Assembly: GCA_963779755.1 (NCBI GenBank) | Contig: CAVZZO010000001.1 | Location: 1,056,001 to 1,120,000, forward strand | DNA length: 64,000 nt | From: an uncultured Gemmatimonadales bacterium | GTDB taxonomy: Bacteria > Gemmatimonadota > Gemmatimonadetes > Gemmatimonadales > GWC2-71-9 | Reading direction: 5' to 3' | Shown: one piece after another, positions 1,184-34,492 of the stretch | How the letters are laid out: each line of letters starts with the position of its first letter | Numbering within the stretch: position 1 is the first letter of the stretch | Notes under the pieces: generated by a model | Seen by the model: only the letters and a program-made list of their open reading frames with translations | Database searches by the model: none | Told to the model about the DNA's origin: nothing | Translations under genes and position numbers: made by a program

Positions 1184-1218
1184 AACACAAAGGCCTCGGG
1201 CTAAAACGGCCGCGAGGC
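1184..1218 (-). terminator. Putative riboswitch-controlled intrinsic terminator upstream of metH
   Basis: GCCUCG(C)GGC-loop-GCCCGAGGC followed by CUUUGUGUU; mutually exclusive with the GCUAAAACG/CGUUUUAGC hairpin at 1200-1229. Confidence 0.6.
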
Positions 1219-1270
1219 TGCGTTTTAGCGGGATGTTTAACGTGGCCGCAATCAGCGCAAATCGCCACGA
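1218..1270 (-). ncRNA. SAM-II (SAM_alpha) riboswitch aptamer
   Basis: Minus strand CGUGGC GAUUUG CGCUGA UUGCG GCCACG UUAAACAUC CCGCUAAAA CGCAG: P1 CGUGGC/GCCACG plus GAUUU, UUGC and GCUAAA motifs; upstream of metH. Confidence 0.88.
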
Positions 1271-1343
1271 ACTGGGGTCAGGATTCAGGAGTGAGGAGTG
1301 AAGGCCGCGGCCCCTCCCCTCGCCCCGCCCGACCGTATAGTCT

Positions 1344-3514: not shown

Positions 3515-3531
3515 TGCAACCTTGGTGCCAA
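3515..3531 (-). promoter_or_regulatory. Sigma54 -24/-12 promoter of the GNAT gene
   Basis: TTGGCACCAAGGTTGCA (GG-N10-GC) about 45 nt upstream of the start; IHF-like AGTCAACAGCTTG at 3615-3627. Confidence 0.7.
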
Positions 3532-25014: not shown

Positions 25015-25473
25015 CTAGAACATCGACATCGCCAGCAACGACCGCAGGTTGTCGTTGGTGGCGCGGAGGCGGGTCGAAAGCATGCGGACCACCGACCAGA
25101 GGACCTTGTAGGCCAGGTCGCGGTTGAAATCGAGCAGCAGCTCGAAATCGGGCCGGGAGATGGTCATCAGAATGCAGGGGGTGTGGGCCAGGGCGTCGGT
25201 GGAGCGTTCGCTGCGGTCGAAGACGGCCATTTCGCCGAAGCAGGAACCCGCCTTGAGAATGGCCAGGGCTTCCTCGCCGGAGCCGGGAATGGTGCGGCTG
25301 ATCCGCACCTCGCCTCCGAGAACGAGAAACAGGCGGTTGCCCTTGTCGCCCTCCTGGAAGATCGTCTCGGCCGCCTGGTATTTATGTTGCTGGCAGATCT
25401 CGGCGATGCGGGCCAGCTCGCCGTCATCCAGGTCGGCAAAGATGGCGGTATTGCGGAGCAGGTCCAGGTTCAT
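25015..25473 (-). CDS. Stand-alone cyclic nucleotide-binding domain protein
   Basis: IFQEGD..LFLVLGGEV..FGEMAVFD..RST; no HTH. Confidence 0.9.
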   Translation of the reverse strand: MNLDLLRNTAIFADLDDGELARIAEICQQHKYQAAETIFQEGDKGNRLFLVLGGEVRISRTIPGSGEEALAILKAGSCFGEMAVFDRSERSTDALAHTPCILMTISRPDFELLLDFNRDLAYKVLWSVVRMLSTRLRATNDNLRSLLAMSMF

Positions 25474-30777: not shown

Positions 30778-32727
<1,950 letters not shown>

Positions 32728-33059
32728 GGATGGCTTGGGGGGTGAGGGCCGGGAAGAGGGCGGGCGGCAGCCCCGCCACAGGATCGATGAACCTTATCCC
32801 GGAAGGGCGGGAGAGGGAACCGGCGGGTTCGTTGCGGTCGAAGGCCGCAGGTCAAACTCCGGGCAATTCCGGGAAGGACTGAGGATTGAAGACTGAGGCG
32901 GACCCGCAGCGAAATCGTGTAAACGGTAGAGATCACAATGGCGGTGATAGGGGCCGCGACCTAGCGACTAGCGACTCAATGCCGCGGAGCGCGGTGCAGG
33001 AGCTGGCAACCCACCCCCTTGCGCCTGCTGAAGTCGTTGCATCACATGTGGTTGCGCGT

Positions 33060-33076
33060 TTGGCACCAGTCTCGCA
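33060..33076 (+). promoter_or_regulatory. Sigma54 -24/-12 promoter
   Basis: TTGGCACCAGTCTCGCA: GG 33062-63, N10, GC 33074-75. Confidence 0.6.
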
Positions 33077-33117
33077 ATAGTGAGATGTCGAGGCCGGAAA
33101 AGCCGGCCGACAACTGA

Positions 33118-33218
33118 TCCGCCCGATAAGAGCACACCCGGAGCGATCCGGGGCCGCAAAACTAGAGGTCTCCTCCGGCCCGATGGCCGGCGCGAGATAG
33201 CTCGGTGCCGAAGGTGGA
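33118..33218 (+). ncRNA. GEMM-I cyclic dinucleotide riboswitch, A20 variant (3',3'-cGAMP type)
   Basis: P1 UCCGCC/GGUGGA; CGAUAAGAGCACACCCGGA-GCGA-UCCGGGGCCGCAAAA; P3 GAG GUCUC...GAGAU AG CUC; UGCCGAA; register matches the Vc2 aptamer. Confidence 0.85.
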
Positions 33219-33228
33219 CGCTACACGC

Positions 33229-33283
33229 GGGAGCGTGATGCGGTCGCTGGAGGACACGCGGCGAACATCACGCTCCTTTTGTA
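33229..33283 (+). terminator. Riboswitch expression-platform hairpin/terminator
   Basis: GGGAGCGTGATG...CATCACGCTCCT stem with inner TCGCTG/CGGCGA, ending in a short T run (TTTTGTA). Confidence 0.65.
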
Positions 33284-33305
33284 CCCGGGCGGTAGGAGGC
33301 AGGCA

Positions 33306-33614
33306 ATGTCCCTACAATCGAGGACGACCATGCTGACCGCGCCGGAGCATCTGGGCCTGGACTCACGTAATGAATTCCGCCGCTCGGCGGTGCAGCTGCT
33401 GGATCAGCTCCCCGAAGGCCAGGGTCGGCTGGTCATCGATCTCAGCGCCACCCGCCGGGTCGACTCCGCCGGCCTGGGCGCGCTGATGCTGGTGCAGCGC
33501 CGGGCCGCCGAGCGCCGGCAACTGGTGGTGCTGCGCAATGCCAGCGACGAGCTGCGTTACCTGCTGGTGCTGACCAAGCTGGACGACTTGTTCGAACTGG
33601 AGTCGGCCATCTAG
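33306..33614 (+). CDS. STAS domain (anti-sigma factor antagonist) protein
   Basis: LVIDLSATRRVDSAGLGALM with the conserved Ser; AGGAGG SD. Confidence 0.9.
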   Translation: MSLQSRTTMLTAPEHLGLDSRNEFRRSAVQLLDQLPEGQGRLVIDLSATRRVDSAGLGALMLVQRRAAERRQLVVLRNASDELRYLLVLTKLDDLFELESAI

Positions 33615-33629
33615 CAGGCGGGGCTGCGG

Positions 33630-33700
33630 GAAAGGACCGAGAGAAAAGGACCGAGAGAACAGCCGCGTTTCTCTCAGTCCTTTTCTCTTTTCTCCCTATT
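33630..33700. repeat. Purine-rich/pyrimidine-rich inverted repeat
   Basis: (aaggaccgagaga)x2 followed by tctctcagtccttttctc. Confidence 0.7.
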
Positions 33701-33745
33701 ATCTTCCCCCCCGTCACACCCCGACTCCTCCAGCCCCTGACCCTG

Positions 33746-34492
33746 GTGCCAGGAAGCCCCTCCGACATCCCGGTTTCCCTCGCCGATGACGCCCCGCTGC
33801 TCGCGATCCGGGGGGTGACCCGCTGGTTTGGGCCCACCCCGGTCCTGCGCGGGGTGGATCTGGATCTGCGGCCCGGTCAGCTGATCGTCGTGATGGGAGA
33901 GAACGGGTCGGGCAAGAGCACCCTGCTGCGGGTGGTGGCCGGCCTGATGAAGCCCTCGGCCGGGACGGTACTGGCGGCGGGGCGTCCGGTGCATGCCGGC
34001 GATCCCTCCACCCGCGCCCCGCTGGGGCTCATCGCCCACCAATCGCTCATGTACGACGACCTGAGCGTGCGGGAGAATCTGACCTTTGCCGCGGCCCTGT
34101 ATGGTCTCCCCCATCCCGCCGCCGCGGTGCGGCAGGCGCTGGAGGCGGTGGACCTGGTCGAGCGGGGCGACTGGCGGATCAGCCGTCTCAGCCGGGGCAT
34201 GCTGCAGCGGGCGTCCCTCGCCCGGGCTTTTCTTCACCAGCCGCGCATCCTCCTGCTGGACGAGCCGTTCACCGCGCTCGATGCTCCCAGCGCCGACCGG
34301 GTCCGGGCCTGGCTCATGGCGCAGCTGCAAGGCGGCTGCGGGGCGATCCTGGTGACGCATCAACTGGTGGAGGTCTGGGACCTGGTCACCGATGTCGCGG
34401 TCCTGGTGCAGGGGCGCTGGGGGATTCTGGGCCCGCGGCCGGCGGACCTGGGCGAGTTCCTGCTGCAGTACCAGGAGGCGATCAGTGGGTAA
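33746..34492 (+). CDS. ccmA: Heme export ABC ATPase CcmA
   Basis: GENGSGKST, LSRGMLQR, LLDEPFTALD; upstream of ccmBC. Confidence 0.88.
   Translation: MPGSPSDIPVSLADDAPLLAIRGVTRWFGPTPVLRGVDLDLRPGQLIVVMGENGSGKSTLLRVVAGLMKPSAGTVLAAGRPVHAGDPSTRAPLGLIAHQSLMYDDLSVRENLTFAAALYGLPHPAAAVRQALEAVDLVERGDWRISRLSRGMLQRASLARAFLHQPRILLLDEPFTALDAPSADRVRAWLMAQLQGGCGAILVTHQLVEVWDLVTDVAVLVQGRWGILGPRPADLGEFLLQYQEAISG

Follow-up and report, generated by a model that had tools for sequence, protein, structure and literature searches.

A 64,000-nucleotide stretch of DNA from an uncultured Gemmatimonadales bacterium (GenBank contig CAVZZO010000001.1, positions 1,056,001 to 1,120,000; hereafter the window) carries a gene for a small STAS-domain protein, preceded by a leader in which a sigma-54-type promoter, a riboswitch aptamer of the GEMM-I family and a series of competing hairpins follow one another (Table 1). 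The aptamer is a genuine member of the GEMM-I or c-di-GMP-I class, named after cyclic dimeric GMP (c-di-GMP), and it has an adenine at position 20 in the numbering of the Vc2 aptamer. On balance, and with somewhat better than even confidence, we read it as a riboswitch that senses c-di-GMP, or both c-di-GMP and cGAMP (3',3'-cyclic GMP-AMP), and acts as an OFF switch in a sigma-54-transcribed STAS leader. The comparative material consists of 80 orthologous STAS loci (68-82% identity) from a scan of species-representative genomes, all of which are titled Gemmatimonadota or Gemmatimonadales except for one metagenome-assembled genome (MAG) labelled Bacillota. The host is a Gemmatimonadales bacterium and thus lies outside the Deltaproteobacteria, as a previous reading of the sequence without database searches (the sequence-only reading) had held.

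Table 1. Features of the STAS leader and gene (window coordinates).
Feature	Position	Strand	Basis or detail
Sigma-54-type promoter, TGGCAC-CAGTC-TCGCA	33061-33076	+	-24/-12 motif, read in sequence
5'-terminal leader hairpin, UGUC..GGCCGG-AAAAG-CCGGCC..GACA	33086-33112	+	minimum-free-energy fold
GEMM-I (c-di-GMP-I class) aptamer including P1	33118-33218	+	RF01051 match, 41-sequence consensus fold
P1	33118-33125 with 33209-33218	+	RNAalifold consensus, 41 sequences
P2	33132-33157	+	GNRA-type tetraloop GCGA at 33143-33146
P3	33161-33173 with 33193-33206	+	GUCUC (33168-33172) opposite GAGAUAG (33194-33200)
Position 20 (Vc2 G20), A	33131	+	aligned to RF01051 model position 11, consensus G
A47 equivalent, intercalating adenine	33158	+	first A after P2-closing GC; alignment to consensus GCAAA
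C92 equivalent, predicted Watson-Crick partner of the ligand's beta G	33208	+	consensus structure
C93 equivalent, paired with G 33125	33209	+	consensus structure
Antiterminator (anti-P1) hairpin	33213-33248	+	P1 3' strand (GGUG and CGC) with 33240-33248; apex CACGC-GGGA-GCGUG
Terminator-like hairpin H2	33229-33282	+	11-bp stem 33230-33240/33266-33276, then UUUUGU 33277-33282
D box, CGGGCGG, shortly before the Shine-Dalgarno sequence	33286-33292	+	sequence complements the P1 5' strand as well as the last part of the H2 3' arm
Shine-Dalgarno sequence AGGAGG	33294-33299	+	
Start codon ATG	33306-33308	+	homologue N-termini align to this start
STAS-domain protein, 102 residues, anti-sigma-factor antagonist type, DSAGLG motif (Ser54)	33306-33614	+	Pfam STAS_2 2.2e-12, STAS 7.3e-08
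Long hairpin after the STAS stop codon, U/C-rich 3' arm, at the place of the receiver gene	33628-33696	+	-41.2 kcal/mol, z -4.8

Identification of the aptamer is based on both a family model and comparison of relatives. Rfam cmscan matched RF01051 (c-di-GMP-I) at positions 33121-33212 of the plus strand, the score of 43.2 bits (E = 3.9e-05) exceeding the gathering threshold of 35 and the alignment covering the full model (1-87), and the same element scores 111.3 bits under a covariance model built from 41 copies, i.e. the aptamer of the window and those of 40 relatives. The consensus fold of these 41 sequences displays the P1/P2/P3 three-way junction of GEMM-I, with GCGA or GUGA as the tetraloop, and 98.1% of its cells are paired, compared with at most 47.2% when the partners are slid, four pairs being changed on both sides. 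The register of the ligand pocket follows from the junction. Six nucleotides separate the G14 equivalent (33125) from the first P2 pair (33132), which is the length found between G14 and P2 in Vc2. The contact list given for Gs1761 (G8...A14, C15) fits a junction of the same length (PMC7288161). The consensus fold joins G 33125 to 33209 and 33124 to 33210, so that the equivalent of C92 is C 33208. The sequence-only reading is therefore upheld in its description of a complete GEMM-I fold in this register, with an A at position 20, a GCGA tetraloop and the two P3 strands (the last two being read directly in the sequence), and the search with a c-di-GMP-I model that it had proposed as a check comes out above the cut-off. 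As for the set of ligand contacts, A47 and C92 are both present, the role of the former being known from the literature on Vc2, and position 20 is in a known variant state. The equivalents of A20, A47, C92 and C93 (positions 17, 44, 94 and 95 of the first aligned sequence) are invariant in 41/41 aptamers, which are close relatives with an effective sequence number of 1.25.

The aptamer has a bounded distribution. It is found upstream of the STAS gene in 40 of the 80 loci and is absent from 38, the upstream DNA of the other two being too short to judge. Scores above the Rfam gathering threshold were obtained for four of five aptamer-bearing relatives tested (42.6-50.6 bits) and for none of nine relatives without it. 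When the covariance model of 41 copies was run over the window and the 80 loci (869,563 nucleotides) for additional or divergent copies, it recovered only the 41 already known; two further weak matches (16.5 and 14.3 bits) were treated as noise. In a FastTree phylogeny of the adjacent acs gene with local SH-like support, which includes 62 of 81 rows since 19 had no acs match of at least 550 residues, one branch (support 98) separates all aptamer-bearing rows, 31 in number, from the rest, a split that would be compatible with a single gain or loss of the aptamer. Two loci (L010, 37-114, and L012, 5825-5903) have a divergent form with a P3 base of CCAAGGGAUCUC.../...GAGAUCGACCCUGG, in which A20 is kept and the P3 changes are compensatory; the former is under the Rfam gathering score. 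The locus labelled Bacillota (L050, 'Bacillota bacterium MAG294') has a STAS locus, an aptamer and an acs gene that group inside the Gemmatimonadales, as sister to L025 with a support of 99, and its contig was probably mis-binned.

The promoter is conserved more widely than the aptamer. Its motif, with GG at 33062-63 and GC at 33074-75, has the spacing of TGGCAC-N5-TTGCW, and transcription is predicted to start at about 33086-33088. By itself this pattern is not significant in the window, where it matches twice for an expectation of 0.44 and as many matches turn up in 6 of 100 shuffles, and the call carries weight because TGGCAY-N5-TNGC recurs in 76 of 79 regions upstream of orthologous STAS genes (78 with a relaxed pattern), in accord with the motif that the sequence-only reading had placed ahead of the aptamer. 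It lies some 70 nucleotides before the aptamer or, where there is none, some 67 nucleotides before the start codon. The promoter being conserved with or without the aptamer, the riboswitch is an insert between a sigma-54 promoter and a ribosome-binding site. A generic promoter scan of 32600-33800 gave no sigma-70 site, and Pfam found no rpoN or Sigma54_activat gene among the 52 open reading frames (ORFs) of the window. Elsewhere in the window TGGCAC-N5-TYGC is matched exactly just once (3516-3530, minus strand), at the very start of the frame of a GNAT acetyltransferase. The hairpin with which the transcript is predicted to begin may be a 5'-end stabilizer; hairpins with other arms, e.g. GGAACCC/GGGUUCC and GGAGGCC/GGUCUCC, were seen at the same place in leaders of relatives, the arms differing between lineages. 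Several loci without the aptamer (L009, L019, L022, L029 and others) display conserved blocks, such as CTTGCAAACTGCGC and TTTGACAAGCGGTTGAC, about 100-250 nucleotides upstream of the STAS gene. They lie upstream of the sigma-54 motif and are possible targets of IHF or of an enhancer-binding protein.

What lies between aptamer and start codon is of two types, one shared by the window and 23 other leaders (24/41) and one, hereafter direct, found in the other 17. In the window type, P1 forms all eight of its pairs in 24/24 leaders, and its 3' strand has a second potential partner just past the 5' arm of H2, with which it can form the base of an antiterminator hairpin. This hairpin alone folds to -18.0 kcal/mol (z -2.9) with a GNRA-type apex, was recovered in all four relatives folded (5/5 with the window) and has its base helix in 21 of 24 leaders. 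Moreover, the anti-P1 partner covaries with the P1 3' strand, GGUGGAAUGC being found with GCGUUC and GCGGG with CCCGC. The 3' half of the antiterminator is overlapped by the 5' arm of H2, the long hairpin with a short U run that the sequence-only reading had rightly noted before the STAS gene. The H2 region has a folding energy of -33 kcal/mol (z -2.9), and across the 24 leaders 76.6% of the cells in H2 are paired and six pairs are changed on both sides, a level of covariation reached in 0/500 shuffles. Downstream of H2, the D box can pair in several ways: with the P1 5' strand (33119-33125) in 7/7 positions in the window, with the 3' arm of H2 (94.1% paired across leaders, at most 52.9% when slid) and, in several leaders, with the first codons. 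Conceivably it holds the ribosome-binding site open in the ligand-free state and not otherwise.

In the direct type all this is missing. The aptamer ends in GCCGAAGGAGGA, GGAGG begins two nucleotides before the aptamer 3' end and the start codon follows some 8-9 nucleotides beyond it. Since the Shine-Dalgarno sequence (GGAGGA) is here the 3' strand of P1 itself, a P1 stabilized by ligand must occlude the ribosome-binding site. In the acs tree the 12 rows of direct type form a clade (support 100) that lies within the window-type rows, and this type is therefore derived, apparently by a deletion of about 80 nucleotides.

These features outline a model for control of the STAS gene. With no ligand, the P1 3' strand (33213-33221) would pair with 33240-33248, and the resulting antiterminator would take up the 5' arm of H2, so that transcription could continue, while the D box, paired with an H2 3' arm or a P1 5' strand left free, would keep the ribosome-binding site open. 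With ligand bound, P1 would capture its own 3' strand, H2 (33230-33276 and UUUUGU) would form and STAS expression would fall. In the derived subclade, in which the whole platform has been deleted, the use of GGAGGA as the P1 3' strand would give the same sign by direct occlusion.

A P1 3' strand shared with an antiterminator that in turn competes with H2 is the standard layout of an OFF switch, and comparison of the leaders makes this the more probable sign; the sequence-only reading, which held that the direction could not be called, was in this respect too pessimistic. The opposite sign has been considered for the same aptamer. Ligand binding would then free the D box and the ribosome-binding site from a helix with the P1 5' strand (33119-33125/33286-33292) and raise translation, H2 being a structural spacer rather than a terminator. 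We regard this as rather unlikely, and there are nonetheless several observations that favour it. The helix in question, complete in the window, has 6-7 of its 7 pairs in 17 of 24 leaders and appears in unconstrained minimum-free-energy folds, and enforcing P1 raises the unpaired probability of the Shine-Dalgarno sequence in several relatives (0.60 versus 0.26 in L001, 0.63 versus 0.37 in L015). The U run after H2 points the same way, since, of the 10 nucleotides concerned, 5 are U in the window, which makes a good run, and 1-3 in many relatives, where it is poor; the range over the 24 leaders is 1-5. Other points also weigh against the OFF reading: a generic scan of 32600-33800 found no plus-strand terminator, the loop of H2 exceeding the limit of that scan; the pairing of the D box with the H2 3' arm varies mostly by G-U wobble, which makes its support modest; and unconstrained folds prefer H2 anyway, so the antiterminator would have to act kinetically. 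Thermodynamic modelling (unpaired probability of the Shine-Dalgarno sequence, local folds in which the H2 3' arm was included or left out, opening energies) was also set aside as decisive for the direction, the results being inconsistent between leaders. As far as it goes, however, the comparison of opening energies leans away from an ON switch: of 21 window-type leaders, 8 need more energy to open the ribosome-binding site when P1 is enforced, 3 need less and 10 stay within 1 kcal/mol, the values for the window being 12.1 kcal/mol with P1 enforced and 11.3 without. In addition, the helix between P1 and the D box stops 1-2 nucleotides short of the Shine-Dalgarno sequence, which it leaves uncovered, and is weak (4-5 of 7 pairs) in L067, L073, L074 and L079; in these four leaders the D box instead matches the H2 3' arm in 6/6 positions. 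The nested direct clade must be OFF, and an ancestor that was ON would have needed an inversion of sign. It is very improbable that the aptamer is merely a relic in decay that no longer regulates anything. Half of the orthologous loci do manage without it and the window has already lost the receiver gene neighbouring STAS; however, ligand-contact positions and helices are intact in 41/41 copies, platform helices show compensatory change and one subclade has rebuilt its platform yet kept the aptamer.

The second question concerns the ligand, which we infer to be a guanine-containing 3',3' cyclic dinucleotide. The sequence-only reading had gone from A20 to a switch of the 3',3'-cGAMP type, a step that is not established. 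In Vc2 the ligand's alpha guanine is read by G20, a position that is A in cGAMP riboswitches; in Gs1761 the equivalent of A20 pairs with the adenine of cGAMP (PMC6140456). Yet according to the same source A20 is not sufficient: Vc2 G20A is bispecific (53 nM for c-di-GMP, 120 nM for cGAMP) and Cbe 1-2, a natural A20 aptamer of Clostridium beijerinckii, prefers c-di-GMP about 15-fold (30 nM versus 463 nM), A20 pockets binding c-di-GMP through an adenine that is protonated. Geobacter members with A20, on the other hand, can be about 1200-1600-fold selective for cGAMP (PMC6456294; PMC8835794). What determines selectivity among A20 aptamers is given as unresolved, with a possible involvement of P1 (PMC6140456). 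With A20 RNAs ranging from cGAMP-selective to c-di-GMP-preferring, A20 permits cGAMP sensing and does not predict it. By analogy with these RNAs, the pocket would accept both c-di-GMP and 3',3'-cGAMP, and the most likely function is that of a c-di-GMP or dual sensor of nanomolar affinity, which is favoured because nothing shows cGAMP synthesis. Pfam found no GGDEF domain among the 52 ORFs of the window, and there is no GG[DE]EF motif in any frame in the window and the 80 loci (~870 kb, all from one genomic neighbourhood); nor does the 64-kb window or any of the 80 loci contain a gene for a cGAMP synthase or cyclase, this being too little genome to decide either way. No paper linking Hypr GGDEF enzymes with Gemmatimonadota was found in the literature searched. 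All this counts against a cGAMP-selective GEMM-Ib switch, in which Gemmatimonadales would make housekeeping 3',3'-cGAMP, by a Hypr GGDEF or some other synthase, and couple it to a STAS module. That scenario seems unlikely to us, although all riboswitches that we found described as cGAMP-selective have the A20 that is invariant here, which speaks for it. Among such close relatives an invariant base has little independent weight and is a poor sign of selection on that one position. Cabther_A1065 is a protein of acidobacterial origin. It is among the Hypr GGDEF enzymes tested, which are thus not limited to Deltaproteobacteria, and the continuation of the STAS unit into cytochrome c maturation genes in relatives (see below) is a loose echo of the cytochrome regulon of cGAMP switches in Geobacter (PMC6456294). 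Taken as a whole, a truly cGAMP-selective, OFF-type GEMM-Ib controlling a sigma-54-dependent unit of STAS and receiver genes appears quite unlikely, and there is only a small residual chance that the ligand is something other than c-di-GMP or cGAMP in these combinations.

The gene under control encodes a STAS protein, as the sequence-only reading had stated. Its start is likely the ATG downstream of the Shine-Dalgarno sequence and not the first in-frame TTG (33279). The protein has 1565 homologues, which where named come from Gemmatimonadales, and the best 120 listed are 69-100% identical; Ser54 is invariant among 30 aligned sequences. Among proteins of solved structure its best relative is TM1442, an anti-sigma antagonist (E 1.4e-05) in which DSAGLG lines up. 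The proposal that the riboswitch is wired into partner-switching control has fared less well. None of the 52 ORFs of the window encodes an RsbW-type kinase (HATPase_c) or a PP2C phosphatase, and none was found among 9, 7 and 6 neighbouring ORFs in L004, L016 and L019, respectively. Partner switching is consequently an argument at the level of the STAS family, and the partner proteins may be encoded elsewhere in the genome.

In relatives the gene order is kup, acs (divergent), STAS, a stand-alone receiver, ccmA, ccmB, ccmC and aquaporin. STAS, receiver, ccmA, ccmB and ccmC are co-directional in L004 (5998-8760), L015, L016, L037, L063, L066 and L074, and in these seven loci the frames of the receiver and ccmA abut or overlap, the start codons being uncertain. 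The five genes may thus form one operon in relatives, to judge from their arrangement, and control by the sigma-54 promoter, and by the riboswitch in those that have one, may there extend to the ABC exporter for cytochrome c maturation. A receiver gene follows STAS in 77 of the 80 loci and is absent from the window, where its place is taken by a 130-nucleotide spacer (33615-33745) with GGACCGAGAGAA repeated twice. In L007 (5998-6693), STAS and a receiver domain are found in one 232-residue ORF, which is either a true fusion or the result of a sequencing frameshift, and in protein P0031 the STAS domain runs on into receiver-like sequence. Elsewhere in the window, a small protein of 152 residues (25018-25473, minus strand) consists of a single cNMP_binding domain. 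The only other riboswitch that Rfam found in the whole window is unrelated, a SAM_alpha element (1202-1278, minus strand; 45.3 bits against a cut-off of 36) that leads a gene with a homocysteine S-methyltransferase domain, this Pfam domain starting at residue 118 of the open frame. The SAM_alpha family is described for Alphaproteobacteria, and this copy is in a Gemmatimonadales genome.

GEMM-I riboswitches have long been known and A20 variants have been described, and the element is thus not new in kind. The literature searched contained no paper joining Gemmatimonadota with a GEMM-I riboswitch, none joining GEMM riboswitches with anti-sigma antagonists and no mention of wiring in which a cyclic-dinucleotide input, a sigma-54 promoter and a STAS/receiver unit are placed ahead of ccmABC. 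The 41 A20 aptamers, phylogenetically bounded and from an under-studied phylum, represent a test set outside Geobacter for the notion that A20 means cGAMP. The two leader types provide a natural before-and-after pair for one aptamer and one gene, antiterminator and terminator on one side and direct capture of the Shine-Dalgarno sequence after loss of ~80 nucleotides on the other, which would be useful for studying how riboswitch platforms evolve. Should the aptamer prove cGAMP-selective, this would make 3',3'-cGAMP a housekeeping signal, with a role other than phage defence, in a phylum from which such signalling is not known to have been reported, and would mean an OFF-type GEMM-Ib of a sign opposite to that of the Geobacter examples, in a unit that in relatives reads on into ccmABC.

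How the locus compares with known systems depends on which of its parts is considered. For the protein, the references are SpoIIAA, RsbV and TM1442, with which it shares a single STAS domain of ~100 residues and the DSAGLG phosphorylation-site motif. It differs from these in its sigma-54 promoter and in having no kinase, anti-sigma factor or PP2C nearby, while its Gemmatimonadales relatives pair STAS with a stand-alone receiver gene followed by ccmABC. For the aptamer, Vc2 and RF01051 provide the three-helix fold, the GNRA tetraloop of P2, the equivalents of A47 and C92 and the length of the junction between G14 and P2, all of which are found in the window, whereas position 20 is A instead of G and the P2 internal loop is ACA/GCC where the RF01051 consensus has AAA/GAC. 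The Geobacter GEMM-Ib switches (Gs1761, Gm0970, pilM) are alike in A20, C92 and A47, and the unit in relatives includes cytochrome c maturation genes; no Hypr GGDEF was seen here in the window and the 80 loci. A20, the one sequence criterion of GEMM-Ib, makes the aptamer a candidate member of that subclass, whose defining property is selectivity for cGAMP. Cbe 1-2 is likewise a natural A20 variant outside Deltaproteobacteria, for which affinities have been measured. With respect to the platform, the pilM and pgcA switches of Geobacter are described as transcriptional ON switches in which aptamer and terminator are mutually exclusive (PMC9262584; PMC6456294), whereas in the window it is with the antiterminator that the P1 3' strand is shared, an OFF layout. 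This layout is nearer to that of Cd1 from Clostridioides difficile, described as a transcriptional OFF switch in which the ligand-bound aptamer and the terminator can coexist and both compete with the antiterminator (PMC9262584), i.e. the same logic as that proposed for the window. Cd1 differs in having a G at position 20 (G11 in its own numbering), flagellar genes and another kind of promoter, and the window has in addition a D box, which may add a layer of translational control.

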